Shown: positions 5,604 to 22,646 of the stretch, one piece after another
Layout: every line of letters begins with the position of its first letter
Numbering within the stretch: position 1 is the stretch's first letter
Source: Candidatus Omnitrophota bacterium
Lineage (GTDB): Bacteria; Omnitrophota; Gorgyraeia; 2-01-FULL-45-10
Length of the DNA stretch: 64,000 nucleotides
NCBI GenBank assembly: GCA_028699255.1
Contig: JAQVUX010000002.1
Span: 173,875 to 237,874, forward strand
Direction of reading: 5' to 3'
Notes under the pieces: model-generated
The model's input: only the letters and a program-made list of their open reading frames with translations
What the model was told of the DNA's origin: nothing
The model's database searches: none
Position numbers and translations under genes: made by a program

Positions 5604-5607
5604 CAAG

Positions 5608-6321: not shown

Positions 6322-6323
6322 CA

Positions 6324-6722
6324 ATGGATAACAATATGATCAAACTCGTTGAGGCGAAATTCCTGAAGAAGGAGATCTCACAGTTCAGTATTGGCGATAC
6401 GGTTGACGTTCAGATGAAGATCGTTGAAGAAGGAAAAGCGCGTATCCAGACATTTGAGGGCATAGTCATAGCGCGCGCCGGTTCAGGGCTTACCGAAACA
6501 TTCACTGTGCGCAAGATGTCGTACGGCGAAGGCGTTGAAATGGTATTCCCCATACATTCTCCCTCGATCGACAAGATCAAGATCGTGAAGAAGGGCGATG
6601 TGAATAGGGCTAAACTCTATTACCTGAAGCGAAAAGTAGGGAAAGATACGAAAGTCGATGAGAAGATCACGCACATCGCCGAACAACCGCCGGCTCCTCA
6701 AGATCGAAAGGCGGCTGAGTAA
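6324..6722 (+). CDS. rplS: 50S ribosomal protein L19
   Basis: 132 aa in the conserved rpsP-trmD-rplS order (no rimM in between). Confidence 0.9.
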   Translation: MDNNMIKLVEAKFLKKEISQFSIGDTVDVQMKIVEEGKARIQTFEGIVIARAGSGLTETFTVRKMSYGEGVEMVFPIHSPSIDKIKIVKKGDVNRAKLYYLKRKVGKDTKVDEKITHIAEQPPAPQDRKAAE

Positions 6723-7311
6723 TTCGGGTTGTCTGACAATAGCCGGTGTAGACGAAGCGGGCCGCGGCCCGCTCGCCGGGCCTGTTATTGCCGGCGCTGT
6801 CATACTGAAAAGCCTCGATTTTACCTGCACGATAGACGATTCGAAAAAATTATCGCAAAAAAAACGTGAAAAGGCCTACGATGAGATATTCAAAAAGGCC
6901 TTTGTCGGCGTCGGCATCGTAGATGAAAAAGCGATCGACGAATTGAACATATATCGCGCGACTTTACGCGCGATGGAGATCGCCATTGCAAACCTCGATA
7001 TCCCGCCCGATCACATCATAGTGGACGGTAAAATGAAACTTACCGCGAAGTGTCCGGTTCTATGCGTTGTTCGGGGCGATTCGAAGTCGATGTCCGTGGC
7101 CGCCGCATCCATAGTGGCCAAGGTTACGCGCGACCGGATCATGGTCGATTACCACAAAGAGTACCCTCAGTACGGTTTTGCCCGTCATAAAGGTTATGGC
7201 ACGCGCCTGCATAAAGAGGCCCTAAGCCGCTTTGGGCCGTCCCCGATACATCGATACAGCTACCAACCTGTCAAAGAAGCCGCCATTTCAGTCAAAAAAC
7301 CCTTGATATAA
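6658..7311 (+). CDS. rnhB: ribonuclease HII
   Basis: IAGVDEAGRGPLAGPVIAGAVIL catalytic N-terminal motif. The 5' end is uncertain: the ORF-track start at 6658 overlaps rplS by 65 nt, and there is no canonical start codon between 6723 and the motif. Confidence 0.8.
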   Translation: MRRSRTSPNNRRLLKIERRLSNSGCLTIAGVDEAGRGPLAGPVIAGAVILKSLDFTCTIDDSKKLSQKKREKAYDEIFKKAFVGVGIVDEKAIDELNIYRATLRAMEIAIANLDIPPDHIIVDGKMKLTAKCPVLCVVRGDSKSMSVAAASIVAKVTRDRIMVDYHKEYPQYGFARHKGYGTRLHKEALSRFGPSPIHRYSYQPVKEAAISVKKPLI

Positions 7312-7384
7312 TCCTGACTTAACCTTATAATAATATTTCCTTCAATTAACAATATAATATAATAGCTACGATAGCGGGCTTACG

Positions 7385-9079
7385 ATGAAGAGCGATGTTC
7401 AAATAGCAGCGGAAGCGAAGTTGAAGCCGATATCAGCGATAGCCGGCAGTATCGGCATACCCGGCAGATATATCGAGGCTTATGGAAGCCACAAAGCCAA
7501 AGTCTCCATAGATATTCTCACGTCCTTAAAACCGAAAAAAAAGTCTAAGTACATCGTAGTTACCGGCATAACGCCTACGCATCTGGGCGAGGGGAAGACC
7601 GTTACGACGATCGGTCTTTCGATGGCGCTCAATCGTCTTGGGAAACGGTCTATAGCGTGCCTGAGACAACCGTCCATGGGGCCTTTCTTTGGTGTAAAAG
7701 GCGGCGGGGTCGGGGGTGGTTATTCGCAGGTAGCTCCGGAATATGATATAAATCTGCATCTGACAGGCGATATCCATGCGGTTACGCAGGCGCATAATCT
7801 TGCCGCGTCGTTCCTCGATAACCACCTCTACCGAGGGAATAAACTCAACATAGATATTAACAGGATTTTCTGGCGCCGCGTACTCGATGTCAATGACAGG
7901 GCGCTTAGGAATATCAGGATAGCCATAGGCGGGAAGGAGTCGGGCGTCGAACGCGATACGGGCTTCGACATAACCGCCGCAAGCGAGATCATGGCTATTC
8001 TCGCGCTCGCCGAGTCAATGCCTGACATGAGAAAACGGCTCGGCAGAATAATAGTCGCGCTGAATAAGTCGGGGCGGCCGGTTACATGCGATGACTTAAA
8101 GGTCGCCGGCGCCATGGCCGCGATACTCACGGACGCGATCAACCCGAATCTCGTCCAGACGATAGAGAATACCCCGGTTTTTATACATACCGGCCCGTTT
8201 GCCAATATTACGCACGGCAACAGTTCCATACTTGCCGATAGAGTGGCGCTCGGGCTGTCCGATTACGTCGTAACGGAATCGGGCTTCGGCGCGGATTGCG
8301 GCCTCGAAAAATTCGTCAATATAAAATGCAGGGCGAGCGGGCTTAAACCATCGGCCGCGGTGCTCGTAGCATCGGTCAGGGCGCTGAAAATACATTCCGG
8401 ATTATTCGATATGGTCGTGGGCAGGCCATTAGGTCGCGAACTCTCCGTGGAGAATCTTGACGCTGTTGAGTTGGGCCTGGCAAATCTCGAAAAGCAGATA
8501 GAGAACGTCCGGATATACGGTATCCCTTGTATCGTCGCGATCAACAGGTTTGCCTCCGACACCAACCGCGAAATTGAACTTATTAAAAAGAAGGCGCTTG
8601 AAGCGGGCGCCTTCAGTTGCGTCCAGAGCGAAGTTCACAGGTACGGCTCCCGCGGCGGAGTGGAGTTGGCCAAAGCGGTCGAAGATGCGTGCTCGGCAAA
8701 CGGAAAATTTAATTTTCTATATCCGGATGTTATGCCGATCGAAGAGAAGATAGGCATGATAGCGCGGAAGATATATGGCGCACGCGGCGTACATTTTGAA
8801 AAGACCGCCGCTGAAGATATAAAACTTTACAAGAAACTCGGGTTGGCGAAACTTCCCATCTGCATGGCGAAGACGCACCTGTCGTTGTCGCATGATCCGA
8901 AGATCAAGGGCGCCCCTAAAAATTTCATCCTGCCGGTGCGTGACGTGAAGCCGTCCGCAGGCGCCGGATTTCTCTACGCATTGTGCGCAGACATAATGAC
9001 CATGCCCAGCTTACCGTCAAGGCCGGTGGGGGAGCATGTCGACATAGATGCGAAGGGGAGGCTTAAATATGTACAATAA
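7385..9079 (+). CDS. fhs: formate--tetrahydrofolate ligase
   Basis: 564 aa; TPTHLGEGKTVTTIGL P-loop and overall FTHFS layout. First gene of the methyl branch. Confidence 0.9.
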   Translation: MKSDVQIAAEAKLKPISAIAGSIGIPGRYIEAYGSHKAKVSIDILTSLKPKKKSKYIVVTGITPTHLGEGKTVTTIGLSMALNRLGKRSIACLRQPSMGPFFGVKGGGVGGGYSQVAPEYDINLHLTGDIHAVTQAHNLAASFLDNHLYRGNKLNIDINRIFWRRVLDVNDRALRNIRIAIGGKESGVERDTGFDITAASEIMAILALAESMPDMRKRLGRIIVALNKSGRPVTCDDLKVAGAMAAILTDAINPNLVQTIENTPVFIHTGPFANITHGNSSILADRVALGLSDYVVTESGFGADCGLEKFVNIKCRASGLKPSAAVLVASVRALKIHSGLFDMVVGRPLGRELSVENLDAVELGLANLEKQIENVRIYGIPCIVAINRFASDTNREIELIKKKALEAGAFSCVQSEVHRYGSRGGVELAKAVEDACSANGKFNFLYPDVMPIEEKIGMIARKIYGARGVHFEKTAAEDIKLYKKLGLAKLPICMAKTHLSLSHDPKIKGAPKNFILPVRDVKPSAGAGFLYALCADIMTMPSLPSRPVGEHVDIDAKGRLKYVQ

Positions 9080-9674
9080 AAAGCCGCTACGTGATTATCT
9101 GGATGACCTTGCGGCCAGGCGCCCCGCGCCGGGCGGCGGAAGCGCGGCCGCGCTTTCCGCGGCGATAGGAGCCGCTCTTATTTCTATGGTAGCGAACTAT
9201 ACGGTGGGTAACCCGAAATATAAATCGGATGAGGATAAAGTAGCCGTTATTCTGAAGAAGGCTGAGGCGTATCGTACCCGGCTTCTGGCGCTGGTCGATG
9301 AAGACGTGTCCGCGTATGAAAAATTATGCGACGGAATAAAAAATTCACCCAAAGGTTCTCAGGCCCCGGACGGGCTTTATAAGGATGCGATCACCCCGCC
9401 GCTAGAGATGTGCAGGATATCCGCGGAAGCGCTCGGGATATGTAAGGAAATTGCGGAATGCGGGAACAGGAATTTGATAACAGATACCGCGATAGCCGCG
9501 ATACTTCTCGAAGGAGCATTTTTTTCCGCGAAGTTTAACGTGTACATAAATTTGAAATATATAAAAGACATTGATTTTATCGGCAATATCCACAAAGAGC
9601 TTTCGCCTCTGGAAAAGTCTCTGCCGGAATTAAAAGAAGAGATATTGGAAATGTGTGAGGAAGTTATAAAATAG
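9069..9674 (+). CDS. fchA: methenyltetrahydrofolate cyclohydrolase (cyclodeaminase-domain protein)
   Basis: LRDYLDDLAARRPAPGGGSAAALSAAIGAAL is the FchA/cyclodeaminase signature. Start at ATG 9069 (MYNKKP) overlaps the fhs stop by 11 nt. Confidence 0.75.
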   Translation: MYNKKPLRDYLDDLAARRPAPGGGSAAALSAAIGAALISMVANYTVGNPKYKSDEDKVAVILKKAEAYRTRLLALVDEDVSAYEKLCDGIKNSPKGSQAPDGLYKDAITPPLEMCRISAEALGICKEIAECGNRNLITDTAIAAILLEGAFFSAKFNVYINLKYIKDIDFIGNIHKELSPLEKSLPELKEEILEMCEEVIK

Positions 9675-9694
9675 CGTTTAGCTCAGGGGGAGAA

Positions 9695-10555
9695 ATGGCG
9701 GCAATATTATTAGAGGGTAAGCCGATAGCCGAAAGGTTGGGGGCTAAAATAAAATCCGAAGTCGAGGTTTTGAAGGCAGAGCGGGGGATGGCGCCGAAGC
9801 TTTTGGCGCTCCAGATAGGCGTAAATGCTTCGTCTGCCGTATATGCGAAGGCGCAAAAGAAAGCGGCCGAATCGCTGGGCATAGACTACGAGCTTAGGAC
9901 GGTTGCCGATTTGACGAGCCAGGCGGAGGCGGAAAAATTGATAAAAGATTTAAATAAAGATCCGGGTATTGCCGCCGTCATACTTCAACTCCCGGTGCCG
10001 AAAGGTATCGACGCCAAGCGTCTGGTGAACCTGATATCGCCCGGGAAAGATGCCGAAGGCATGCATCCGCAGAACCTCGGCAGGATATTGCTGGGGCAGT
10101 ACAATATCGGGCCGTGCGCGGCGATGGCGGTCATGGAGCTTTTAGGTTCGATAAAAGCGGATCTCTATGGCAAAGAAGCGGTTATCGTCGGGCATTCCGA
10201 GATAGTCGGTAAGCCCCTGGCGATGATGTTATTGAGTAAGTTCGCGACGACCACGGTATGCCACATAGCTACGAGCAAGCGCGGGGTACTGCCGGAGCAC
10301 ATAAGGCGCGCCGAGATATTGGTGGTCGCGGTCGGGAAGGCGGGAGTAGTCAGGGGCGAATGGATAAAACCCGGAGCGATAGTGATAGACGTCGGCATAA
10401 ATCGAGCGGGCGATAAGATACTCGGCGATGTCGAGTTTGACAGCGCCGCGGATAAAGCCGCGTATATTACGCCGGTTCCCGGGGGGGTAGGGCCGTTGAC
10501 CACCACGATACTCATGCGAAATACCGTAGAATTATTTAAGGGGCAGGTTAAATGA
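9695..10555 (+). CDS. folD: bifunctional methylene-THF dehydrogenase / methenyl-THF cyclohydrolase
   Basis: 286 aa; ILLEGKPIAERL... and GHSEIVGKP / PVPGGVGP motifs. Confidence 0.9.
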   Translation: MAAILLEGKPIAERLGAKIKSEVEVLKAERGMAPKLLALQIGVNASSAVYAKAQKKAAESLGIDYELRTVADLTSQAEAEKLIKDLNKDPGIAAVILQLPVPKGIDAKRLVNLISPGKDAEGMHPQNLGRILLGQYNIGPCAAMAVMELLGSIKADLYGKEAVIVGHSEIVGKPLAMMLLSKFATTTVCHIATSKRGVLPEHIRRAEILVVAVGKAGVVRGEWIKPGAIVIDVGINRAGDKILGDVEFDSAADKAAYITPVPGGVGPLTTTILMRNTVELFKGQVK

Positions 10556-11418
10556 CATTCTGTGAAAAGATAAAACAGGGCAGTTTCGTAATTACCAGCG
10601 AGATAGGACCACCTAAAGGCATCGATTTAAAAGAGATGTTCGAAGACGCGGAGCTCATAAAAAGCCGTGTCGACGCTATGAATGTTACCGATCTGCAGAG
10701 TTCCGTTTTGAGGGTCGGTTCGCTCGCGGTATGTAAACTTTTAAAAGATATGGCCATCGAGCCGATATTGCAGATGACCTGCCGCGACCGGAATCGCCTG
10801 GCGCTCCAGTCGGATCTTTTATCCGCGGGTGCGCTCGGGATAGAGAACGTCCTAATCCTGACGGGCGATTACCCTACGCTCGGCGACCATCCCGAAGCGA
10901 AGCCGGTATTCGACCTCGATAGCGTCGAGCTCATACAGGCCGCTAAAACACTCGAAGGCGGGAAGGATATGAAGGGCAACGCGCTGAAAGGCGCGCCTGA
11001 GTTTTGTATCGGCGCGGTCGTCAATCCAGGCGCCGATCCGCTCGAGCCCGAGATAATAAAGATGGAGAAGAAAGTAGAAGCCGGCGCACAATTTTTTCAG
11101 ACGCAGGCGGTATATGACATCGATCTTTTCAAAAGATTTTTAGACGCCTCGAAACATATAAAAATACCCGTGCTTGCGGGAATCGTGATTTTAAAGTCCG
11201 CGGGCATGGCGAAATACATGAATAAGAACGTTGCCGGGGTATTCGTTCCCGATGCTCTCATAAACGAGATGGAGACGACAAAAGATAAATCGGCGAAGTC
11301 TATCGAGATTGCGGCGCGTCTCATCAGAGATCTCAAGCCCCTCTGCCGGGGCATACATATAATGCCGATCGGATGGGATAAGAAAGTACCGGCGATATTG
11401 GATGCCGCTGGATTGTAG
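10552..11418 (+). CDS. metF: 5,10-methylenetetrahydrofolate reductase
   Basis: 288 aa TIM-barrel MetF-like (VITSEIGPPKG, LQMTCRDRNRLALQSDLL). Overlaps the folD stop. Confidence 0.8.
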   Translation: MTFCEKIKQGSFVITSEIGPPKGIDLKEMFEDAELIKSRVDAMNVTDLQSSVLRVGSLAVCKLLKDMAIEPILQMTCRDRNRLALQSDLLSAGALGIENVLILTGDYPTLGDHPEAKPVFDLDSVELIQAAKTLEGGKDMKGNALKGAPEFCIGAVVNPGADPLEPEIIKMEKKVEAGAQFFQTQAVYDIDLFKRFLDASKHIKIPVLAGIVILKSAGMAKYMNKNVAGVFVPDALINEMETTKDKSAKSIEIAARLIRDLKPLCRGIHIMPIGWDKKVPAILDAAGL

Positions 11419-11442
11419 AATTTCGAAAAACAGGAGAACGCG

Positions 11443-13647
11443 ATGTCGAAAGCATCGGAGATAACTATAAAAACAGTAGCGGGATTGATGGTCTCAGGCG
11501 CGAAAAAGGTCATTGCGCAGGCCGATGCGTTATTGGGCAGGGCAAAAAAAGAAAAAGGCCCCGCGCAGGCGGTCGCATTTCCGGAAACAGCATTCTATCT
11601 CCCGTTGGCTAACGCGCTTCTCGGGCTCGAAACGAAGACGGTAGCCGATGCTGAAAAGATACTGTCTGCGGCTAAGACGCTTGTTATAAAGGACGTGCCT
11701 TCCGAAGACGCATGGGGCACATTCCTTAAAGATTCGCTCAATGCAGGTGTGGCGGCCATACTTTGCGAGGAACTCATCTCGGCTTTGAAATACGTTTACG
11801 GCCAGGAGCCGCAAAAAGACTGCCCGGGGTTCTTCCCGGACACGATACTGCGTTCGCTCGGGATACAATTAGTCGACGGAAGGATATCCGGCATCGCGGT
11901 CATCCTGGGCCGCGCGCCGGACTCGGCGATCGCCGTTAGCATAGTGCGCGACCTGCAGAAACGTAACATACTGACACTCTTGGGCGGTAATGTCGATGGT
12001 GTCAGCATTATAGACCAGTTGAAAGAAGGCGGCCTTCAGATGGGGCTCGACAGTTATGTGGTGCCTTACGGCCGCGACACATTGTCGATCGTCTACGTCC
12101 TCAACTTCGCGATAAGGGCGGCGCTCTCATTCGGCGGCATCAAGGCGGGCAACGCGAAAGCGTGCGTCGATTACGTCAGAGACAGGGTGCCGGCGTTCGT
12201 CATGCTTTTGGGCGGAGTCGATGAGGTGAAGGCGGCGACGGGCGCGGGCGCCATCGCGGCGGGAGTGCCGATCATAACCGATCTCGATCTTCCCGAAGTG
12301 CGTGTTCCGGGAGTGTGCGCTCACGAAGAGTGCCTTGTTAAAGAGAAGGATTATAAAAAAATAGTCCAGAGGGCCGTAGAGGTGCGCGGCATAAAAGTAA
12401 AAGTCGCGCAGATCCCCATACCGGTACCGTTCTCGGCCGCTTTTGAGGGCGAGCGCGTCCGGAAAGAGAATATGTTCGCGCAATTCGGCGCGAAGTATTC
12501 GCCCGCCTTCGAATACCTGCGGATGAAAAAAACCTCCGAGGTCGAAGACGGTAAAGTTACGGTCATAGGCCCCGAGATCGACCGGATGCAGGAAGGTTCA
12601 AATTATCCGCTGGCGCTGGTGATCGACGTTACGGGCAGGAAGATGTCGGTTGATTACGAGCCTATACTCGAACGGCAGATACACAAATTTCTAAATTACG
12701 CCATGGGCGTATTTCATATGGGCCAGCGCGACATGAACTGGATCCGCATATCAAAGGACGCAAAGAAGGCCGGTTTCAAGATGCACCATCTGGGTGATAT
12801 CTTAGTGGCCAAGCTCCACGACGAATACGGTGCCATAGTCGATAAAGCCCAGGTTACGATATATACTGACGAGAAGGAAGTGATGGCGCTTCTGCCGGAG
12901 GCCAGGCGGGCTTTTGTGGCCAGGGACGAACGGCTCGCGGGAATGACGGATGAGTCGGTCGATACATTCTACAGCTGTACGCTTTGCCAGAGTTTCGCGC
13001 CGGATCACGTCTGCGTTGTGAGTCCCGAGCGGCTCGGACTGTGCGGCGCATATTCATGGCTCGACGCGAAGGCCGCCCACGAAATTACGCCGACCGGCGG
13101 CAACCAGCCGATAAAGAAGGGTAATGCGATCGACGCGGCGAAAGGTTTCTGGAAAGGCGTGAATGATTTTGTGTTTACCGCTTCTCATCAGCATACCTCG
13201 CAGATGGCGGCGTATTCGATCATGGATTCGCCCATGACCTCGTGCGGCTGTTTCGAGTGTATCGTGGCGATAGTCCCGGAAGCCAACGGTGTCATGATCG
13301 TAAACAGGGAGTACGCGGGCGAGACGCCGGTGGGGATGAAGTTTACGACGCTTGCCGGGACGGTGGGCGGCGGCAACCAGACCCCGGGGTTCCTGGGTGT
13401 GGGCAGATTATACGTGGCCAGCAGGAAGTTCATCTCGGCCGAGGGCGGGTTAAAACGGGTCGTGTGGATGCCGAAAGAGCTCAAAGAGGTACTTAGCGAT
13501 AAATTGAAGGCGCGCTGTAAAGAACTCGGGTCCCCGGAGCTGTTTGACAAGATCGCTGATGAGACGATCGCGACCGATTCCGCCGCGCTGGTCGAATATC
13601 TGCAGAAAGTCGGTCATCCGGCGCTGGCGATGGATCCGCTGATGTAA
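11443..13647 (+). CDS. acsB: CO-methylating acetyl-CoA synthase subunit (A-cluster subunit, AcsB/CdhC type)
   Basis: 734 aa; the A-cluster ligand motif CGCFEC and cysteines in FYSCTLCQSFAPDHVCVVSPERLGLCGAYSWLDAKAAHEI; size matches bacterial AcsB. Confidence 0.85.
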   Translation: MSKASEITIKTVAGLMVSGAKKVIAQADALLGRAKKEKGPAQAVAFPETAFYLPLANALLGLETKTVADAEKILSAAKTLVIKDVPSEDAWGTFLKDSLNAGVAAILCEELISALKYVYGQEPQKDCPGFFPDTILRSLGIQLVDGRISGIAVILGRAPDSAIAVSIVRDLQKRNILTLLGGNVDGVSIIDQLKEGGLQMGLDSYVVPYGRDTLSIVYVLNFAIRAALSFGGIKAGNAKACVDYVRDRVPAFVMLLGGVDEVKAATGAGAIAAGVPIITDLDLPEVRVPGVCAHEECLVKEKDYKKIVQRAVEVRGIKVKVAQIPIPVPFSAAFEGERVRKENMFAQFGAKYSPAFEYLRMKKTSEVEDGKVTVIGPEIDRMQEGSNYPLALVIDVTGRKMSVDYEPILERQIHKFLNYAMGVFHMGQRDMNWIRISKDAKKAGFKMHHLGDILVAKLHDEYGAIVDKAQVTIYTDEKEVMALLPEARRAFVARDERLAGMTDESVDTFYSCTLCQSFAPDHVCVVSPERLGLCGAYSWLDAKAAHEITPTGGNQPIKKGNAIDAAKGFWKGVNDFVFTASHQHTSQMAAYSIMDSPMTSCGCFECIVAIVPEANGVMIVNREYAGETPVGMKFTTLAGTVGGGNQTPGFLGVGRLYVASRKFISAEGGLKRVVWMPKELKEVLSDKLKARCKELGSPELFDKIADETIATDSAALVEYLQKVGHPALAMDPLM

Positions 13648-13739
13648 AGCGAGATAACCTCGTAGATTGGTCATCTATTTTTCATGAGATAACCTCCGAG
13701 GTCGATGGGCTGATATACATTGGTTCTTAATCTAAATTT

Positions 13740-13900
13740 TTCGTCCTGGAAGGAAGACCCTTTCAGGATTCATGCCTCGCGTGGACGCGAAAATTTTGAC
13801 CATGCAAAATTTTCGCTCGAGAAAAATTGCTCGGACGTTGCCTCGCAATTTTTACGCCCCGCTCGGCACGAATCCCTGCGGGTCTTCCTCCGACAGGAAG
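13740..13900. repeat. structured palindromic repeat, copy A (~160 nt). The same family occurs in inverted orientation at 60826-60990.
   Basis: Terminal IR GGAAGACCC (13753) / GGGTCTTCC (13879); internal hairpin GCGAAAATTTT-gaccatgc-AAAATTTTCGC (13785-13814). About 85-90% identity to the reverse complement of 60826-60990 by manual alignment. Confidence 0.75.
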
Positions 13901-13923
13901 CGAAAAATTTACCGGAGGTAGTG

Positions 13924-14118
13924 ATGAAGAAACTATATTTGTCGGACACGAATAAGAAGATCGGCGGGGTATGCGGAGGGCTCGGAGAATATTTCGATCT
14001 CGACCCGACGCTCATCAGAGTGATCTTTATACTGATCGCCCTTTTGTCGTTCGGCCTCGGCGTTATAGGGTATATCCTCATATGGATGATTATCCCGCGC
14101 AAGCCTAAGGGTGTATAA
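13924..14118 (+). CDS. PspC-domain small membrane protein
   Basis: 64 aa, MKKLYLSDTNKKIGGVCGGLGEYFDLDPTLIRVIF followed by one TM helix, which is the PspC domain pattern. The start is placed at ATG 13924 inside the longer ORF 13720-14118, which otherwise runs through the repeat. Confidence 0.65.
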   Translation: MKKLYLSDTNKKIGGVCGGLGEYFDLDPTLIRVIFILIALLSFGLGVIGYILIWMIIPRKPKGV

Positions 14119-14148
14119 AATTAATTTGAAAAGGAGTAGGCGGTTAAA

Positions 14149-14505
14149 ATGAACAAGGTTATTATTACAACGGCGATGCTGGTTTGCAGTAATATATTTA
14201 TGACGTTTGCGTGGTACGGCCATCTGAAAAATTACAATGATAAACCGTGGATCGTTGCGGCCATTATAAGCTGGGGCATCGCGCTCTTTGAATATCTTTT
14301 ACAGGTTCCGGCGAACAGGATAGGCCATCAGGTGATGAATCTGGGACAGCTGAAGATACTCCAGGAGGTAATAACCCTATCCATCTTTGTACCCTTCTCG
14401 ATACTTTATATGAAAGAAGGGTTTAAAAAAGATTATATATGGGCGGCGATTTTTATCGTCGCGGCTGTGTTTTTTATGTTTCGCGGAATATTAACAAAGA
14501 GCTAA
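14149..14505 (+). CDS. small multi-pass membrane protein (DMT-like / DUF486-type)
   Basis: 118 aa with four predicted TM helices; no catalytic motifs. Confidence 0.5.
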   Translation: MNKVIITTAMLVCSNIFMTFAWYGHLKNYNDKPWIVAAIISWGIALFEYLLQVPANRIGHQVMNLGQLKILQEVITLSIFVPFSILYMKEGFKKDYIWAAIFIVAAVFFMFRGILTKS

Positions 14506-14508
14506 AAA

Positions 14509-15528
14509 ATGAAAACGATAAAAATATTTATGACGGCAATTTTTGCAGGGATTATTATTTCGACGGCCTGTCCGGGTTTTTGCGGTGAGCCGGTAATCTC
14601 GATGCAGATCGATAACGAGATAATGCCGGATACGCGTAACGCGATTCGCGATATAAATAACACTCTCTTTGAAAGCATGAAGAGCAACAAGCCTGCCGTT
14701 ATGATGGAGATGTTCGTCGACGAGGGGAAGGCCGATAAAGCTCTCGAGGAGAACGTAAAAGCGGCATACGATAAGATGGGTGAGCTCGCGAAAGGTACCG
14801 GGTTTGATATGCTGCATGAATACCTCATTGACGTGAAAGGCTCGGGGACGGTTACGGTTACCTTGCCGGGCGCGGACGGCGAAAATTTTCTTATGAATGT
14901 CGACGCCGGCAAAGGGCCTTTGTACATGTCATTCCTTATCTCTAAGAGTAATTTTAAAGATCTTGCGCTCTGTTTCGTTTATATGAAAAAGGCAGACGCG
15001 TGGCGCCTGCACACTTTCCATCTCGGCACGTACCGCGTGGGAGGCAAAACGCCGGTTCAATGGTACGCGGAGGCCAGGGAGATGTATGAGAACGGCTGGG
15101 ATGTGCCGGCGATGCAACGGATGCAGCTTATCGATACGTTTATGCGCCCCGCGCCATTCCTCCAATATGAAAAAGAGCCGCAGATGCGGGATTTTTTCGC
15201 CGCGGGCGCGGCAGAGACATCCCGAAAGTATAAATTTCCTGTGAAGGCGACCTGGGTTAAGGATATGCCCGCTATATACGGCCTGGATATTCAATTTACC
15301 AATGGTAAACTCATACCGGTTGTTATCTACGTGACCCAGCATCCGCTCAATAGGGCCGTGCCGATACAGGACGAAGCGGATGCGATAACGCAAAAGATCG
15401 AAAAGATAATTCCCGGCATTACGCGCGGCACGGAATCCGTAGGATACAGGGTTTTTACCGAGCCGCCTACCGATAGCGCGAAACAGTATAAATATAGAGC
15501 CGTAATCAGCAAAGTTGGGATCGCATAA
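14509..15528 (+). CDS. hypothetical secreted protein / lipoprotein
   Basis: 339 aa; N-terminal signal MKTIKIFMTAIFAGIIISTAC (possible lipobox); no recognisable domain. Confidence 0.5.
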   Translation: MKTIKIFMTAIFAGIIISTACPGFCGEPVISMQIDNEIMPDTRNAIRDINNTLFESMKSNKPAVMMEMFVDEGKADKALEENVKAAYDKMGELAKGTGFDMLHEYLIDVKGSGTVTVTLPGADGENFLMNVDAGKGPLYMSFLISKSNFKDLALCFVYMKKADAWRLHTFHLGTYRVGGKTPVQWYAEAREMYENGWDVPAMQRMQLIDTFMRPAPFLQYEKEPQMRDFFAAGAAETSRKYKFPVKATWVKDMPAIYGLDIQFTNGKLIPVVIYVTQHPLNRAVPIQDEADAITQKIEKIIPGITRGTESVGYRVFTEPPTDSAKQYKYRAVISKVGIA

Positions 15529-15540
15529 GGAGAAGAGCGG

Positions 15541-16875
15541 ATGGCGTTGTCAGGACTGGATATATATAAACTTTTACCAAAAACCAATTGCAAGGATTGT
15601 GGTTTCGCGACATGCCTGGCGTTTGCCATGGCGCTCGCCCAGAAGAAGGCTTCGCTCGCAAAATGCCCGCATGTTACGCAGGACGCGCGCGCGGCTCTCG
15701 AGAGCGCCGCCCAACCGCCGATCAGGCTCGTTACGATAGGCGTTGGCGCGCGAAAGATCGAGATAGGCAACGAGACGGTGATGTACAGGCATGAGCAGAA
15801 GTTTTACCATCCTGCGGCGGTCGGATTTCTTATAGAGGATACGGCCTTACCCGCCGATATCGATAAAAAGATCGAGGAGATAAAAGCTCTCGTATTCGAA
15901 AGGGTCGGCCAGGTAATATCGGCCAATCTAATATGCGTGAGAAACTCCTCGAAAAACAAAGAAACTTTTGCGCTTGTGGTTAAAAAGGTTTCTATGTCCG
16001 GTGGCTTACCCCTGGCTTTGGAGACGTCCGAACCTGCCGCGGCGATAGAGGCGCTCGCCCAGATCAGGGACGCCAGGCCGCTTCTTATCGCGTCCGATGC
16101 GCTTCGTACGGCGGAATTTGCGAAGATTGCCAAAGATAGTCAATGCCCTCTGGCGGTTACATGTACGGGCCTGGATGACGCGGCGCAATTGACGGATATC
16201 GCGCGGAAGGCGGGCGTCGAAGAGATAGTTATTTCTATGAAGAATAGTAGCTTTTCCGGTAAAATACAGGATTTCACTTACGCCCGCAGAGCGGCGCTTA
16301 AGAAGAGTATCCGCGCGCTCGGGTATCCTGTACTTGCGTTTACCGATGAGCCTTCGGCCGAGATGGAGCTGGCCGAGGCGATATCGTACGTTTTGAAGTA
16401 TGCCGGCATCGTTATAATGAAGAATACCGCGAAAGAGTTTGTATTTCCTCTTCTTGTAGCCCGACAGGACGTTTATCAGGATCCGCAGAAGCCGGTGCAG
16501 GTGGAGCCGAAGATATACGAGATAGGCAAGGTCACGAAAGATTCCCCAGTTGTCGTAACGACGAATTTCTCGATAACTTATTTTACCGTTGCGGGGGAGG
16601 TAGAGTCGAGCAAGGTGCCTGCGTACATAATATGCTGTGATTCGGAGGGGATGTCGGTTCTGACCGCGTGGGCGGCGGAGAAGTTCACCGCGGAGAGCAT
16701 TGCCGATGTTCTCAAAAAAAGCGGTATCGAAGGAATAGTCTCGCATAAAAAAGTTATTATACCCGGATACGTCTCGGTATTAAGCGGAAAACTCGAAGAA
16801 GTTTCGGGGTGGAAAGTTTCGGTGGGCCCGAGGGAAGCGTCCGGGATACCGAATTATCTGAGGAACTGGAAATAA
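15541..16875 (+). CDS. acsC: corrinoid iron-sulfur protein large subunit
   Basis: 444 aa; N-terminal 4Fe-4S binding motif CKDCGFATCLAFAMALAQKKASLAKCP followed by a TIM-barrel-like region, as in AcsC/CdhE. Confidence 0.85.
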   Translation: MALSGLDIYKLLPKTNCKDCGFATCLAFAMALAQKKASLAKCPHVTQDARAALESAAQPPIRLVTIGVGARKIEIGNETVMYRHEQKFYHPAAVGFLIEDTALPADIDKKIEEIKALVFERVGQVISANLICVRNSSKNKETFALVVKKVSMSGGLPLALETSEPAAAIEALAQIRDARPLLIASDALRTAEFAKIAKDSQCPLAVTCTGLDDAAQLTDIARKAGVEEIVISMKNSSFSGKIQDFTYARRAALKKSIRALGYPVLAFTDEPSAEMELAEAISYVLKYAGIVIMKNTAKEFVFPLLVARQDVYQDPQKPVQVEPKIYEIGKVTKDSPVVVTTNFSITYFTVAGEVESSKVPAYIICCDSEGMSVLTAWAAEKFTAESIADVLKKSGIEGIVSHKKVIIPGYVSVLSGKLEEVSGWKVSVGPREASGIPNYLRNWK

Positions 16876-18744
16876 GTGAAAGAATTTAACGTAAATTTTA
16901 TTCTCTCCCGCGGTTTTTTTATATTCAAGAAGCCGGTTGCTAAAAGTGTGCGAATAGCGCAGGGAACCGACCTTCTGACCGCGGCAATAAAAGCGGGTGT
17001 ATTTTTAAACGCATCCTGCGGCGGCGAAGGCCTGTGCGGTAAATGTAAAGTCGGGATAAAAGACAAGACGGTGCTCGCGTGCCAGGTGATAGTCGACCGT
17101 GACCTTGTAGTAAATGTTCCCAAGGAATCGCTCGAGGCGCGCGAAAGTGTAAAGACGTCCGCGGAAGAGTTCACCAAAGGCATTATTTTAAAAAGGGAGA
17201 AGGCGTATAAGCATTCTCCGGTAGTCCGCAAGATATACATGAAACTACAGGGCCCGACCGATGACGATAATTTGAGCGACCTGGAGCGCATATCGAAGGA
17301 ACTTGCCTCTAAGATGGACGGGGTGCACATCTCGGCGAAGCTGGCGACCGTCAAATTTCTCGGCGAGTGCCTGCGCGATAGCGATTTCGCGGTGACCGTT
17401 ACCGTAGGCTGTAGAGAGGGGCAGGCCGAGATCCTCTCTGTAGAGCCGGGCGATACCAGCGCCGCAAGCTACGGGTTCGCGTTCGATATCGGCACGACGA
17501 CGGTAGCGGGTCAGCTCATCGACCTTAACACATCCGAGATACTCGGTAGCCGCATAGCTTTCAATAAACAGGCCGCATATGGCAGTGACGTGATAACGCG
17601 GATAATATTGGCGTCGAGCGCTGAGGGGCTCGAGAAGATGCACCAGGCGGTTGTTTCGAACATGAACGAAATCATAGAAGATCTGGCGCGGACGCGCAAT
17701 ATCAATTTCACGGATATCGATGCCATAACGTGCGCGGGCAACATGACGATGATGCACCTTTTTCTAAAAATAGATCCGTCCGGCATCAGGCGGCCGCCGC
17801 ATATCCCGGCTTCTGTCACGTTTCAGTCGATGCATCCGGCGGAAGCGGGTATTGAGGCGAACCCGAAAGGGCTAATGTTATTCATGCCCGGCGTCAGCAC
17901 ATACATAGGCGGCGATATAGTGGCGGGTGTTCTTGCCTGCGGGATACACGATTCCGACGATCTGTCGTTATTGGCGGACATAGGGACTAACGGCGAGATA
18001 GTGCTCGGCAATAAAGAATGGATGATTGGCGCCTCCGCAAGCGCGGGGCCGGCCTTCGAAGGTAGTGGGCTTAGTTGCGGCATGAAGGCGGTTTCCGGCG
18101 CGATCCAGAAGGTGGATATCGACGCCGGCCTGAACGTGCGGTGCGGTACCATAGGCGGCGTCAGGCCGCTCGGGATATGCGGCTCCGGTTATATAGATCT
18201 CTTGTGCCGGATGCTGAAACGCGGCATTATAGACAAGGCCGGCAGGATAAATAAGGTTATGAAGTCGGACAGGATTCGCCAGGGGAAAACAGTTACGGAA
18301 TTTGTCGTTGCTTTTGCGTCGGAGACAGGTACGGGCAAGGACATAATAATAGATAATGACGATATCGAGAATATAAAGCGCTCCAAGGGGGCGATATACA
18401 GCGCCATAATGGCCCTGATGGCTAAAGTGGGTAAGGATATCAAGGATGTGAAGAAGATATTTATTGCAGGCGGATTCGGCAATTATCTTAATATCGAGAA
18501 TGCTATAGCGATAGGGCTCTTACCGGATGTTCCCAGGGATGTTTACGATTTTGTTGGGAATTCGTCTCTGGCCGGGGCGAGGATGTCGCTCGTTTCATCC
18601 TCCGCATTCGCCGAGACGGACAAAATATACAGGAATATAACCTATATCGACCTGAGCGCCGAGCCGTCATACATGGATGAGTATGTCGCGTCGCTCTTTT
18701 TTCCGCACACAGATTTATGGAGGTTTCCATCAATACGGTCATAG
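16876..18744 (+). CDS. acsV: corrinoid activation/regeneration protein (RACo; 2Fe-2S ferredoxin plus ASKHA ATPase)
   Basis: 622 aa; N-terminal plant-type ferredoxin cysteines (SCGGEGLCGKCKV ... C) and a large C-terminal ATPase-like domain; position between acsC and cooC. The GTG start abuts the acsC stop, so the true start may be slightly downstream. Confidence 0.7.
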   Translation: MKEFNVNFILSRGFFIFKKPVAKSVRIAQGTDLLTAAIKAGVFLNASCGGEGLCGKCKVGIKDKTVLACQVIVDRDLVVNVPKESLEARESVKTSAEEFTKGIILKREKAYKHSPVVRKIYMKLQGPTDDDNLSDLERISKELASKMDGVHISAKLATVKFLGECLRDSDFAVTVTVGCREGQAEILSVEPGDTSAASYGFAFDIGTTTVAGQLIDLNTSEILGSRIAFNKQAAYGSDVITRIILASSAEGLEKMHQAVVSNMNEIIEDLARTRNINFTDIDAITCAGNMTMMHLFLKIDPSGIRRPPHIPASVTFQSMHPAEAGIEANPKGLMLFMPGVSTYIGGDIVAGVLACGIHDSDDLSLLADIGTNGEIVLGNKEWMIGASASAGPAFEGSGLSCGMKAVSGAIQKVDIDAGLNVRCGTIGGVRPLGICGSGYIDLLCRMLKRGIIDKAGRINKVMKSDRIRQGKTVTEFVVAFASETGTGKDIIIDNDDIENIKRSKGAIYSAIMALMAKVGKDIKDVKKIFIAGGFGNYLNIENAIAIGLLPDVPRDVYDFVGNSSLAGARMSLVSSSAFAETDKIYRNITYIDLSAEPSYMDEYVASLFFPHTDLWRFPSIRS

Positions 18745-19484
18745 CGGTGAACGGCAAAGGAGGCACGGGCAAATCGACCATAGCGGCGCTTTTAGTTAAG
18801 CATATTGTGGCCGGGCGCCTCGGTTCAGTCCTGGCGATAGACGCGGATCCGAATTCGTGCCTGGCCGATAATCTCGGAATGACCGCGCCGGATACGATAG
18901 TCGGAACATGCGAAACAATATCGAAGAACCTTTTAAAGATACCCGCGGGGATTACGAAAGACAGGTTTATAGAAATGCGCGTCCAGGAGGCGGTCAATGA
19001 AGGTAGCGGGTTTGATCTCCTGGTGATGGGTAGGCCCGAGGGGCCCGGATGTTACTGTTACGTTAATAACCTTTTGCGCGGGATAATAGAAGACATCACA
19101 AAAGGTTACGATTTTGTGATAATAGATAATGCCGCGGGTATGGAACATATTTCCCGCCGGACGACGGCTAAGATGAGCAAACTCCTCATTGTAAGCGATT
19201 ACTCGATACCGGGCATTCGCTCATCCGCGCGCATATATACGCTTGCCAAAGAGCTCGGTATAAAATTCGACGGCGCATATCTCGTGGTCAATAAAGTCTC
19301 CGGGCCGCTCGCGCCGCTCGCCGCTGAGATAGAGAAGACGGGTTTAGACGTCGCGGGCAGTATGCCTTACGACGAGGAGATAGTTGAGTGGAATGTCTCA
19401 AATAAGGCAATATTTGAGTTTAATAGCGCGGCGGTAGAAAGAGAGATCGAAGAGATATTTAACAAATTAATAAAAGAGGCATGA
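18717..19484 (+). CDS. cooC: CODH/ACS nickel-insertion accessory ATPase
   Basis: 255 aa with a deviant Walker A, IAVNGKGGTGKSTIA (MinD/ParA family); overlaps the acsV 3' end. Confidence 0.85.
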   Translation: MEVSINTVIAVNGKGGTGKSTIAALLVKHIVAGRLGSVLAIDADPNSCLADNLGMTAPDTIVGTCETISKNLLKIPAGITKDRFIEMRVQEAVNEGSGFDLLVMGRPEGPGCYCYVNNLLRGIIEDITKGYDFVIIDNAAGMEHISRRTTAKMSKLLIVSDYSIPGIRSSARIYTLAKELGIKFDGAYLVVNKVSGPLAPLAAEIEKTGLDVAGSMPYDEEIVEWNVSNKAIFEFNSAAVEREIEEIFNKLIKEA

Positions 19485-20410
19485 TAATGGACTTCATTAA
19501 AGAAAAGTATTCCAATCCCATCAATACCGTAGTGATAGGCGACGGCGCGAACATTATCAAGATAGGCGGCGAATCGACGATGCCGTTTTTATTCGATGAG
19601 GGTACCATGCCGAACGCGCCGGTAGTGGCGCTGGAGATATGGGATTGCGAACCTGCCGATTGGCCGGACCAGCTTAAAGCCTCATATGGCGATTGCATAA
19701 AAGATCCGGTTAAATGGGCGGAAAAGGCCGTAAAAGATTTTGGCGCTAAGGCGCTTTCTTTGCGTTTGCAGAGCGCCCATCCGGATTGGGGGAAGAAGGA
19801 CGCGGGCCATATCGCTTCTTTGGTAAAAACGATAGCAAAGAAAGCGGCCGTTCCGCTCATAATCACCGGTTGCGGCGACGATGAGATCGATAACGACCTT
19901 TTGCCTAAAGTAAGCCAGGCGGTAAAAGGATTGAACTGCCTATTTGGGATCGCGACGCAGAATAATTACAAAACGCTCGCCGCCACGTGCCTGGCGGACG
20001 GGCATTCGATAATAGCCGAATCGCCAATCGATATAAATATCGCCAAGCAGGTTAATATACTTATAACCGATATGGGATTTGACCCGTCCAGGATCGTGAT
20101 GCATCCGACCACGACATCTTTAGGTTACGGCATGGAATACGTATATTCGATAATGGAGCGCGCCCGCCTTGCCGCTTTTATGGGCGACAGAATGCTGGCA
20201 ATGCCGTTCATACTTTTTGTGGGAAGCGAAGCCTGGAAGACGAAAGAGGCGAAGGAATCGACGGTGGGCCAGGGGATCAACTGGGAGCTGGCTACGGCGG
20301 TTCCGATGCTGCAGGCCGGTGCCGATATGCTGGTGATGCGCCATCCGGACGCCGCTAAGGCTATAGCCGTGTACATAGCGCGCGCCATGAATGAAAGGGG
20401 TCAACCGTGA
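19481..20410 (+). CDS. acsD: corrinoid iron-sulfur protein small subunit
   Basis: 309 aa TIM-barrel protein between cooC and acsE; ATGA overlap with cooC. Confidence 0.75.
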   Translation: MIMDFIKEKYSNPINTVVIGDGANIIKIGGESTMPFLFDEGTMPNAPVVALEIWDCEPADWPDQLKASYGDCIKDPVKWAEKAVKDFGAKALSLRLQSAHPDWGKKDAGHIASLVKTIAKKAAVPLIITGCGDDEIDNDLLPKVSQAVKGLNCLFGIATQNNYKTLAATCLADGHSIIAESPIDINIAKQVNILITDMGFDPSRIVMHPTTTSLGYGMEYVYSIMERARLAAFMGDRMLAMPFILFVGSEAWKTKEAKESTVGQGINWELATAVPMLQAGADMLVMRHPDAAKAIAVYIARAMNERGQP

Positions 20411-21195
20411 TAGTGATAGGTGAGCTCATAAACGGGATGTATAAAGATGTGGGTAAGGCGATAGCTAATAGAGAGACTGATGTTATCCAGCATCTGGCTA
20501 CAGATCAGGTGAACTCCGGCGCTTCTGTGCTTGACGTGAATACAGGCCCGTATTCGAAAAATCCAAAGGACGACATGAAGTGGCTCATCGAGGTCATTCA
20601 GGCTGTTGTCCGGGTACCGCTCGCGCTCGACTCCACGAAGGCGGACGTTATCGAGGAGGGTTTGAAACTTGTCTCGAAACGCGCGATAATAAATTCGACG
20701 AGCGCGGATGAGGCGAAGATGGAATCTATATTCGGCCTCGCGAAAAAATATAATACGCAAGTGATAGGGCTCGCTATGGACAAAACCGGCGTCCCGAATT
20801 CGAAAGATAAGAGGCTGGAGCTTGCGGCGGCGATAGTGGCGAAGGCGATGGAGTTCGGTATTAACACCGAGGACTTATTTCTCGACCCGATAGTCCTGCC
20901 GGTAAACGTTGCGCAGGCGCAGGGCCGCGAAGTCCTTGAGTCAATACGGGAGTTCCGCCTCCTGTGCGATCCGCCGCCGAATACGACGATAGGACTGTCG
21001 AATGTGTCGCAGGGCACGAAGTTCCGTCCGCTCGTCAACCGGACGTTCCTCATTATGGCGATAGCGAACGGGCTTACCTCCGCGATACTCGATCCGCTTG
21101 ATAAGGAATTGATGGATGCAATGATCACGGCTGAACTCGTCCTGAATAAGGCGATATATTGCGATTCGTTTTTGGGCGCATACAGAAAAAAATAG
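20407..21195 (+). CDS. acsE: methyl-THF:corrinoid/iron-sulfur protein methyltransferase (pterin-binding domain)
   Basis: 262 aa pterin-binding (DHPS-like) fold: MIVIGELING..., SVLDVNTGP, INSTSAD, GLSNVSQG. Confidence 0.8.
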   Translation: MIVIGELINGMYKDVGKAIANRETDVIQHLATDQVNSGASVLDVNTGPYSKNPKDDMKWLIEVIQAVVRVPLALDSTKADVIEEGLKLVSKRAIINSTSADEAKMESIFGLAKKYNTQVIGLAMDKTGVPNSKDKRLELAAAIVAKAMEFGINTEDLFLDPIVLPVNVAQAQGREVLESIREFRLLCDPPPNTTIGLSNVSQGTKFRPLVNRTFLIMAIANGLTSAILDPLDKELMDAMITAELVLNKAIYCDSFLGAYRKK

Positions 21196-21213: not shown

Positions 21214-21804
21214 ATGAGACAATGGATGGGATTGACGATAATTGCGATCGTGGCTGTAGCAATGATGGCTACGCTTGCGGGCACGGCTATAGCGTACGAG
21301 GAGCGCTCGTATGAACAGTTGAGCCCGAACGGTAAATACATATTTGTAATGCTCGCAAAATCGCCGGACAAAGAAGGCAGGGTCGATACGCTTAAAGATA
21401 AATATGATCGCTCCGGCCTGTATAAGGCAGGCGAACCGGCAAAGCGCTTTTGGAGCGTGAACTGGTATTCCCCGACCGTGCATATTTCATCGGATGGCGT
21501 TCATTTAGTAAGAATAGGCAGGAAGAGTGTGGTTGCAATAAACGATAAGCCGGATATGGCACAGCTTGCGGTGGCTTTTTACAGTAAAGGCAAGCTTGTG
21601 AAAAAATATACGATCGGCGACCTATGCGGCGATCCTAAAAAACTGGTTCGCGCGCTCGCAGGTTTTCAGTGGCAGAAGCGGATAGCTTTTGACGATGTTT
21701 CTGGGCGGCTCGCGATCAGTCTTGTAACCGGGCAGGATAAAGTGTTTGCCGTGAGATCGGGAAAAATAGTCAAGGCGGACACGCAAAATACGAGGAGACA
21801 ATAA
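21214..21804 (+). CDS. hypothetical secreted protein
   Basis: 196 aa, signal-like N-terminus LTIIAIVAVAMMATLAGTAIA; no known motif. Confidence 0.45.
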   Translation: MRQWMGLTIIAIVAVAMMATLAGTAIAYEERSYEQLSPNGKYIFVMLAKSPDKEGRVDTLKDKYDRSGLYKAGEPAKRFWSVNWYSPTVHISSDGVHLVRIGRKSVVAINDKPDMAQLAVAFYSKGKLVKKYTIGDLCGDPKKLVRALAGFQWQKRIAFDDVSGRLAISLVTGQDKVFAVRSGKIVKADTQNTRRQ

Positions 21805-22646
21805 TGGAACGCAGGAAGATAATGATAACAGATCTTCAAAATAAAAAAATCGAAGGTAAGAAGATAACGATGTTGACCGCTTACGACTATCCGATGGCGC
21901 GGCTTGTCGATGAGGCGGGTATCGATGTGATACTCGTCGGCGATTCGCTCGGCATGGTCGTGCTGGGGTACGATTCTACCGTACCCGTTACGATGGATGA
22001 GATGATACATCATTCGAAAGCGGTCAGGCGCGGTACGAAATACGCGTTTTTAGTCGGCGATATGCCGTTCATGTCTTATCAGGTCTCGAAGGAGGAGGCG
22101 GTCAGGAACGCGGGCCGTTTTATGAAAGAGGCGCTCTGCGATGCCGTAAAGCTCGAGGGTGGCGATGAAGTGATCGATGCTACTATAGCGATAGTAAATG
22201 CGGGTATCCCGGTGCTGGGGCACATAGGGCTCACGCCGCAGACGATATCGAAACTGGGCGGGTTTAAGATCCAGGGAAAGACAGCCCACGACGCCAAAAA
22301 CCTCGTTGATCAGGCGATTAAACTTGAGAGGGCGGGGTGTTTCGGTATCGTCCTCGAATGCGTGCCGGAACTGGTGGGGAAATTGGTTGCGGAAAAAGTC
22401 AGGATACCGGTTATCGGCATAGGCGCCGGCAAACATTGCGACGGGCAGGTTCTTGTAGTGAACGACATGGTCGGGCTTTTTGACAGATTCGTTCCGAAGT
22501 TCGTAAAACAGTATGTAAAGCTCTCCCACTCGATCCTGGAAGGATTAAAGAAATACAAAGAAGAGGTAGAACGCGGCGCGTTCCCGGCCGCGGAGCACAC
22601 GTTCACCATCAAAGAAGAAGAAATAAAAAAACTGAAAAAAATATAA
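21804..22646 (+). CDS. panB: 3-methyl-2-oxobutanoate hydroxymethyltransferase
   Basis: 280 aa; KITMLTAYDYPMARL and GDSLGMVVLGYDST are PanB signatures. Confidence 0.9.
   Translation: MERRKIMITDLQNKKIEGKKITMLTAYDYPMARLVDEAGIDVILVGDSLGMVVLGYDSTVPVTMDEMIHHSKAVRRGTKYAFLVGDMPFMSYQVSKEEAVRNAGRFMKEALCDAVKLEGGDEVIDATIAIVNAGIPVLGHIGLTPQTISKLGGFKIQGKTAHDAKNLVDQAIKLERAGCFGIVLECVPELVGKLVAEKVRIPVIGIGAGKHCDGQVLVVNDMVGLFDRFVPKFVKQYVKLSHSILEGLKKYKEEVERGAFPAAEHTFTIKEEEIKKLKKI

Follow-up and report, generated by a model that had tools for sequence, protein, structure and literature searches.

The acs cluster of the window

The sequence inspected here is a 64-kb stretch of DNA, hereafter the window; the rest of the host genome lies outside it. 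Between positions 7385 and 21195 of its + strand the window carries ten co-directional genes of the Wood-Ljungdahl (WL) pathway: fhs, fchA, folD, metF, acsB, acsC, RACo, a gene for a CooC-family ATPase, acsD and acsE. The acetyl-CoA synthase (ACS) encoded by acsB requires carbon monoxide (CO), coenzyme A (CoA) and a methyl group delivered by the corrinoid protein, and without carbon monoxide dehydrogenase (CODH) no CO can be produced from CO2. No CODH gene accompanies the ten.

Gene identities come from a Pfam scan of the 59 + strand open reading frames (ORFs) that tile positions 138-62823, with an NCBIfam scan beside it at the acs locus. All ten genes match their Pfam profiles at full length and all ten are intact. 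A first-pass annotation, made from the letters, had reported these WL genes as present and co-oriented, and both scans place every one of them where it had put them on the + strand. The genes, together with the spacer between metF and acsB, are as follows (THF, tetrahydrofolate).

7385-9079, + strand: fhs, formate-tetrahydrofolate ligase (Pfam FTHFS, 811 bits, full length)
9048-9674, + strand: fchA, methenyl-THF cyclohydrolase (Pfam FTCD_C, 168.7 bits)
9695-10555, + strand: folD, methylene-THF dehydrogenase/cyclohydrolase (Pfam THF_DHG_CYH and THF_DHG_CYH_C)
10552-11418, + strand: metF, methylene-THF reductase, 288 residues (Pfam MTHFR, 132 bits; NCBIfam, MTHFR half of PRK08645, 257 bits)
11419-11442, no strand: metF-acsB spacer, 24 bp, with an AGGAG ribosome-binding site (from the sequence and from comparison with L027, L012 and all 80 loci described below)
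11443-13647, + strand: acsB, bacterial-type acetyl-CoA synthase, 734 residues (CODH_A_N, CdhC and ACS_CODH_B_C; NF040764, 1013 bits)
15541-16875, + strand: acsC, corrinoid iron-sulfur protein large subunit (Pfam CdhD and FeS; NCBIfam PRK04165, 541 bits)
16876-18744, + strand: RACo (acsV/orf7-type), reductive activator of the corrinoid protein (Pfam Fer2, RACo_linker, Raco_middle and RACo_C_ter)
18717-19484, + strand: AcsF-like CooC-family P-loop ATPase (identity to relatives' paralogues; PDB scores)
19481-20410, + strand: acsD, corrinoid iron-sulfur protein small subunit (Pfam CdhD; NCBIfam PRK04452.1-2, 382 bits)
20407-21195, + strand: acsE, methyl-THF:corrinoid/Fe-S protein methyltransferase (Pfam Pterin_bind; NCBIfam PRK07535, 316 bits)

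The lack of a CODH catalytic subunit had also been remarked on in the first pass, and two kinds of search agree with it. No match to Prismane (PF03063) was found among the 59 + strand ORFs. Moreover, tblastn searches of all six frames of the 64 kb with two genuine CooS proteins of Omnitrophota, and with the CooF and FAD/NAD oxidoreductase (FNOR) encoded beside them, gave no match better than E=0.01. The best CooS match, at E=0.01, lies within acsB, CODH and the N-domain of ACS being distantly similar. Since Pfam and six-frame tblastn were both empty save for this N-domain, the window contains neither a CODH gene nor a pseudogene or identifiable remnant of one. Nor does a cooS gene adjoin the cluster, as the first pass had allowed it might: the 7.4 kb upstream of fhs contain the housekeeping genes coaE, rho, prfA, prmC, a murA-like gene of the EPSP-synthase family, trmD, rplS and rnhB, and the same cooS-free flank is seen wherever the close relatives introduced below show upstream sequence (L003, L007, L009, L010 and L008). 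Hydrogenase, formate dehydrogenase and Rnf genes were likewise not found in the 64-kb window, the remainder of which consists of housekeeping, lipopolysaccharide (LPS)/3-deoxy-D-manno-octulosonate (Kdo) and isoprenoid genes.

Judged by its sequence, AcsB is a functional-looking ACS of the bacterial type. Its residues 17-734 align with 6YTT, 1OAO and 1RU3 at about 710 bits across all three domains, including the N-terminal domain that archaeal CdhC is without, and the archaeal 9C0S matches residues 326-729 only. The NF040764 score lies above a cut-off of 800 bits. The A-cluster ligands are intact (C512-x2-C515...C524...C534 and C601-G-C603, aligned with the PDB enzymes), and the motifs CTLCQSFAPDHVCVVSPERLGLCG and SCGCFEC match those enzymes. 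Within the window's clade, defined below, the ratio of nonsynonymous to synonymous substitution rates (dN/dS) of acsB is about 0.04-0.07, in the N-domain and in A2+A3 alike; dS is saturated in nearly all pairs, so these ratios are rough, yet they are far below 1. Because all ten genes are full length and acsB dN/dS is so low, the operon is under selection and not in decay.

The ATPase gene had been named cooC. It does belong to the CooC family, but identity, structure-based score and position all point to an AcsF-like paralogue and not to the CODH-maturation CooC. It is the only CooC-family gene in the window and lies between RACo and acsD. Its product shares 35-74% identity, in most cases at least 40%, with the copy that relatives carry between RACo and acsD, but only 26-36% with the cooC that precedes their cooS. 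Against Carboxydothermus hydrogenoformans CooC1 (3KJE) its score is 75.7 bits, where the upstream copy of L027 scores 157.5 bits. Its position is presumably that of acsF in the Moorella operon. We infer that it acts as a nickel-insertion factor for ACS; the dedicated CODH-maturation cooC is gone as well, with only the AcsF-like ATPase retained.

Further features lie before, within and after the ten genes.

7303-7331, + strand: candidate operon promoter, sigma-70-like TTGATA-17-TATAAT, the region's best match, 54 nt upstream of fhs (11/12 consensus positions, consensus match only)
13924-14118, + strand: small PspC-domain membrane protein (Pfam PspC, 82 bits; the ORF is listed from 13720, with a likely start Met at 13924)
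14149-14505, + strand: DUF486/DMT_6 membrane protein (Pfam DMT_6, 153 bits)
14509-15528, + strand: 339-residue protein with a lipoprotein-type signal peptide, N-terminus MKTIKIFMTAIFAGIIISTAC (no Pfam or NCBIfam match)
21214-21804, + strand: 196-residue protein with a signal peptide and no family match (homologue in L006)
21804-23627, + strand: panB and panE, ketopantoate hydroxymethyltransferase (methylene-THF-using) and ketopantoate reductase (clade-wide synteny with the acs genes)
23642-24442, + strand: second AcsE-family methyl-THF:corrinoid methyltransferase, 266 residues (Pfam Pterin_bind; NCBIfam PRK07535, 307.6 bits)

The ten genes had been described as one cluster ending at 21195. They are co-directional, but the run is interrupted by three envelope genes (PspC, DUF486 and the 339-residue lipoprotein-like gene) between acsB and acsC, and conserved synteny continues past acsE, via panB-panE, to the second acsE-family gene and its end at 24442. 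This second gene lies directly 3′ of panB-panE and keeps that position throughout the clade. The PspC gene has no homologue detected at any relative locus and is a lineage-specific insert. The DUF486 insert occurs between acsB and acsC in L002 only, and the 339-residue gene has homologues at the same position in L002 and L006, so that parts of the insert are shared by the window's closest relatives alone. A different 2-kb insert occupies the acsB-acsC position in L068. The sigma-70-like site may be the operon promoter, and the real start of fchA is probably just past the fhs stop. The 339-residue and 196-residue ORFs were considered as divergent CODHs, a role that the first pass had thought a hypothetical ORF could fill, and were rejected: both are small signal-peptide proteins with no cysteine motifs and no family match, and both fall short of the size of a CODH. 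No Rfam family at gathering threshold and no tRNA was found in the 64 kb.

Gene order and AcsB types among relatives

Relatives were collected by scanning one genome per species with the window AcsB; 80 loci (L001-L080) were fetched, and the window proteins were mapped onto all of them for synteny. The AcsB matches are almost exclusively to metagenome-assembled genomes (MAGs) of Candidatus Omnitrophota, the closest being fen_1322 (85% identity), STD1_87 (84%), fen_1320 (80%) and CAIMPC01 (74-75%). AcsB identity and synteny, from rho to the second acsE-family gene, assign the window to the FEN-1320/CAIMPC01 group, with MAG taxonomy taken from the tables of PMC10066038. By these marks the organism is a FEN-1320/FEN-1322-like member of the Omnitrophota, class Gorgyraia (GTDB Koll11). 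Because its AcsB is only 74-85% identical to those of the sampled genomes and has no exact match on record, it would belong to another species or genus than these. A Dehalococcoidia origin was considered and rejected, since the top AcsB matches all come from Omnitrophota MAGs and the window has metF and acsE.

The window's clade comprises 13 loci and the window itself, with AcsB at least about 75% identical. Its gene order is rho-prfA-prmC-murA-trmD-rplS-rnhB-fhs-fchA-folD-metF-acsB-acsC-RACo-ATPase-acsD-acsE-panB-panE-second acsE-like, and metF directly abuts acsB in every member. In more distant Omnitrophota, whose AcsB shares about 55-64% identity, metF and acsB are separated by about 3.6 kb. 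In L027 and L012 Pfam resolves this interval into four genes, encoding a CooC ATPase, CooS (637 residues; Prismane, 583 and 567 bits), a CooF-like 2x[4Fe-4S] dicluster protein and a FAD/NAD oxidoreductase composed of Pyr_redox_2 and Rubredoxin_C. The order in CODH-bearing relatives is metF-(cooC)-cooS-cooF-FNOR-acsB.

A cooS gene is present at the locus in 34 of the 80 cases, upstream of acsB in 33 and downstream in one. Fifteen of the 80 Omnitrophota-like acsB loci are too short to call, leaving 65 that are informative for the cooS neighbourhood, and 31 of these have no cooS beside acsB. Thirteen belong to the window's clade; the 18 others read metF-cooF-fnor-acsB (L033 and L041), metF-fnor-acsB (six) or metF-acsB or folD-acsB (ten). 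The first-pass annotation had called the missing adjacent acsA atypical. From the classification of the 80 loci it is, therefore, no oddity of the window: the absence of acsA beside acsB is a fixed trait of the clade and is common in the phylum.

Intermediate states of the module upstream of acsB are seen in L033, L041, L059, L060, L062, L064, L067 and L070. Three of these (L033, L041 and L060) retain the cooS-linked N-domain type described below and may represent recent losses or genomes with cooS elsewhere. The order of the larger blocks is also permuted. In cooS-bearing relatives (L019, L027, L029 and others) it runs trmD...metF-cooC-cooS-cooF-fnor-acsB-TPR-polA-glgA-coaE-rho...murA (TPR, tetratricopeptide repeat), with acsC-E sited elsewhere in many of them, and in the window clade it runs coaE-rho...murA-trmD...metF-acsB-acsC...acsE (window positions 138-7311 compared).

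The N-domain of ACS is normally the docking site for CODH and the part that forms the CO tunnel. In an alignment of 77 AcsB sequences we took as conserved those columns in which at least 93% of the cooS-linked AcsB agree. The window clade has replacements at 29 of 147 such columns in the N-domain, 3 of 50 in A2 and 2 of 115 in A3. At the 27 diagnostic positions used for typing, AcsB from loci with cooS upstream match the cooS-linked consensus at 22-27 and L077, with cooS downstream, at 19, compared with 0-2 in the window clade and 3-10 in a second group. The latter is made up of 15 AcsB outside the window clade, 13 of them confirmed as cooS-less at the locus and two with too little sequence upstream. 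About a dozen replacements are common to both cooS-less groups: M148I, P149S/A, F151I, A153V, F179L, W202L, W222F, F250P, G253V, I271L, A279T and T281L. Residues 148-153 map by alignment directly after the tunnel-gating helix, as that helix was defined in the C. hydrogenoformans complex (PMC12289521). All cooS-linked forms and both aligned reference enzymes have a Pro after the helix; at position 149 the window has Ser instead, and the second cooS-less group has Ser or Ala. What holds up best is that, across these sequences, the N-domain type predicts an adjacent CODH module, and the catalytic domains show no corresponding difference.

Neighbour-joining trees with bootstrap were built separately for the N-domain and for A2+A3. 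In the N-domain tree the window clade and the second cooS-less group are each supported at 100% and the cooS-linked type (type 1) at 88%. In the A2+A3 tree the second group forms a clade in 0/100 bootstraps and is interleaved with cooS-linked lineages. This suggests that its acsB genes are recombinant and mosaic, or that long branches affect the trees, and the N-domain allele of the group may have spread by recombination. Examples of the discordance are L063 against L024 and L074 against L014, the homologous domain of the window lying at 11443-12400. A Tajima-type count of lineage-specific substitutions, made on the A2+A3 topology, gives 71 in the N-domain of the window clade against 19 in its cooS-linked sisters, and 41 against 43 in A2+A3; because the N-domain and A2+A3 trees differ, and because several replacement states equal those of Clostridium autoethanogenum ACS, so that change could have run in either direction, these counts are not a clean rate test. 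Relaxed constraint on the N-domain was considered as proof of CODH loss and set aside, the trees being discordant and the domain being under purifying selection within the clade; the pattern is kept as evidence of co-variation only.

The remainder of the window

All substantial genes of the window, from 138 to 62823, lie on the + strand. GC skew is positive in every 2-kb window, and co-orientation over more than 60 kb is extreme. Further genes include those for glycosyltransferases and Kdo/LPS synthesis, tig, clpP, serA, purA, dxr, rseP, ispG, proS, rimP and nusA. LPS-core and Kdo genes form a long stretch at 24446-40835, which includes a 712-residue fused GT4+GT9 protein and three more GT9 heptosyltransferase-like genes, together with kdsB-, kdsA- and kdsD-like genes, a lipid A acyltransferase, LptC- and LptA-like genes and an ABC ATPase. 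At 56243-60751 lies a 1502-residue ORF whose sole family match is weak, to a helix-turn-helix in its middle part (HTH_19, E=4.5e-5). The rho ORF (542-1981, listed at 479 residues) overlaps coaE by about 200 nt; its Rho domains begin at residue 69, and the real start is probably downstream.

Acetyl-CoA synthase without an adjacent CODH

We regard it as fairly probable that in this CODH-less WL operon ACS and the corrinoid protein form a stand-alone module that exchanges free CO. For the more specific proposal, a stand-alone ACS that takes CO up, we put the chances at a little short of even. The cooC-cooS-cooF-FNOR module of CODH-bearing relatives is missing throughout the window's clade, where metF abuts acsB. 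The components that a working ACS requires are nevertheless all kept and conserved: a three-domain AcsB with an intact A-cluster site, AcsC/AcsD, RACo, the AcsF-like ATPase, AcsE and the complete branch from formate to methyl-THF. On this proposal formate would be converted to methyl-THF through Fhs, FchA/FolD and MetF, the methyl group would pass to the corrinoid protein (AcsCD) through AcsE, and AcsB would make acetyl-CoA from it by adding free CO and CoA, the CO being exchanged with solution and not via a CODH tunnel. Such a route could serve assimilation or act as an electron sink, and would rely on the community or a host for formate and CO. We propose formate and CO as substrates because the operon couples Fhs, FchA/FolD, MetF and AcsE to AcsCD and AcsB. 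Monomeric ACS of C. hydrogenoformans was reportedly found by Svetlitchnyi et al., in 2004, to be active without bound CODH and to use CO from solution. Bacterial ACS binds solution CO with a dissociation constant of 0.74 uM, and in competition with haemoglobin it still prevails when the tunnel is blocked (PMC12289521). Moreover, the formate and CO model agrees with Seymour et al. (PMC10066038).

That study analysed 421 Omnitrophota genomes and found FEN-1320 and CAIMPC01 genomes to be without AcsA and CooS/F genome-wide, and its authors suggest that the carbonyl branch runs on CO (Seymour et al. 2023, Nat Microbiol; PMC10066038). Its supplement says the same and gives 100 and 92.64 in the completeness columns for the fen_1320 MAG (PMC10066038), and the surveyed fen_1320 and CAIMPC01 MAGs are loci L003 and L010 of our set. 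From the survey of relatives, the loss of the maturation cooC and the N-domain type we infer that CODH is missing from the genome and has not been relocated.

Several points weigh against the free-CO reading. Its chemistry is reversible, and the direction of flux, which the sequence does not fix, is its least certain step; moreover, no source of CO has been identified. The genome-wide absence of cooS rests on published MAG annotations of relatives and not on this organism. As for the N-domain, the excess of substitutions in the window clade hinges on the A2+A3 topology, and the N-domain tree places that clade outside the type 1 clade, as either acceleration or an old divergence would. Several diagnostic positions resemble the CODH-docking ACS of C. 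autoethanogenum, and the N-domain type alone does not prove loss of the partner.

The alternative that survives best, although we consider it rather unlikely, is that the pathway runs in the cleavage direction, as in Dehalococcoides. Acetyl-CoA derived from acetate or sugars would be split, the methyl group entering the folate pool via AcsE and the CO being released to neighbours or a host. The gene set would permit it, being reversible, and the operon is linked to panB, whose product consumes methylene-THF, and to a second AcsE-family gene. In Dehalococcoides mccartyi, moreover, experiments support cleavage as the function of an AcsB/AcsCD that has no CODH (Zhuang et al. 2014, as relayed in PMC6113397 and PMC7005905). 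However, the rationale in D. mccartyi is the lack of metF and acsE (PMC7005905), and the window has metF, two acsE-family genes, fhs, fchA and folD. With these enzymes present, methyl-THF could be obtained from formate without sacrificing acetyl-CoA, and the CO released by cleavage would be toxic unless a sink removed it.

The acsA and acsB genes of Clostridium WL clusters do not adjoin each other, and it is conceivable that cooS/acsA lies elsewhere in the present genome, so that the pathway is complete and CO2 is fixed. Only 64 kb are in view, and four loci (L033, L041, L060 and L078) pair a type 1 N-domain with no adjacent cooS, an indication that such separation may occur. We nonetheless think this improbable. 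The survey found no AcsA or CooS/F in FEN-1320 and CAIMPC01, near-complete MAGs included (PMC10066038). The whole four-gene module, cooC included, is gone from 13/13 clade loci and from the window, and the AcsB N-domain of the clade falls outside the cooS-linked type; mere relocation of cooS gives no reason for this co-variation, which therefore argues against it. Of the alternatives raised in the first-pass annotation, exogenous CO and the cleavage direction are thus favoured and a cooS gene elsewhere is disfavoured. Lastly, it is hardly credible that the operon is decaying and has been without catalytic function since CODH was lost: Omnitrophota genomes are reduced (PMC10066038), modules are partly eroded in other lineages and RACo is split in L008, but the ten genes are intact with full-length profile matches, synteny is held although AcsB differ by up to 25% within the clade, dN/dS is low and the A-cluster ligands are conserved.

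The operon of Moorella thermoacetica has what we take to be the order cooC-acsA-acsB-acsC-orf7/RACo-acsF-acsD-acsE. The window shares the order acsB-acsC-RACo-acsF-acsD-acsE, its A-cluster motifs are identical to those of the 1OAO, 7ZKJ and 6YTT complexes, and acsC, acsD, RACo and acsE of a complete Moorella-type CODH/ACS cluster are all present; it differs in having neither acsA/cooS nor cooC and in the replacement of the Pro after the gating helix by Ser 149. Ahead of residue 146 the gating helix is similar in sequence to the one in the class 2 enzyme of C. autoethanogenum. A three-domain precedent for an ACS that works without CODH is the monomeric enzyme of C. hydrogenoformans (1RU3), but that organism encodes several CODHs and also forms a CODH-ACS complex, whereas the window locus has no partner gene and, going by the literature on relatives, neither has the genome. 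In the incomplete pathway of D. mccartyi (Zhuang et al. 2014, PNAS; Deobald et al. 2020, PMC7005905), AcsB and AcsC/AcsD occur without CODH, Fhs and FolD are present and CO must be exchanged with the environment, as in the window; it differs in having no metF or acsE, its methyl groups coming from acetyl-CoA cleavage. The window is thus neither of the Dehalococcoides type, metF and acsE being present, nor of the Moorella type, acsA and cooC being absent.

The closest likeness is to the partial pathway of Omnitrophota (Velamenicoccus archaeovorus type; FEN-1320 and CAIMPC01; PMC10066038), which belongs to the same clade and has AcsB-E and the methyl branch with no AcsA or CooS/F at the locus. 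For relatives, AcsA, CooS/CooF and formate dehydrogenase are reported to be missing genome-wide (PMC10066038). A CODH-less WL pathway in this lineage is therefore already published (PMC10066038), and the window is a further member. That study reports which genes are present or absent; it does not describe the deletion junction, the types of N-domain or the fact that cooC is lost while the AcsF-like gene stays (PMC10066038). The exact metF-acsB junction, the series of reduced modules, the AcsF-like retention without cooC and the N-domain signature may thus be modestly novel. In practical terms, the comparison adds the exact metF|acsB deletion junction and a gene-order series of progressive reduction of the module across the phylum.

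Fragmentary acsB genes from metagenomes could be sorted by the N-domain signature, which also supplies candidate residues for CO uptake without a CODH tunnel. A bolder extension, which we hold to be quite doubtful, is that CODH-less Omnitrophota carry a distinct, selected ACS subtype with an N-domain remodelled so that ACS exchanges free CO on its own, a methanogen or a bacterial host being possible partners. For the biology of the phylum, the locus bears out the published pattern that many ultra-small, probably host-dependent Omnitrophota keep an ACS without the capacity to reduce CO2 to CO, and that they would depend on formate and CO from their community, or shed CO.

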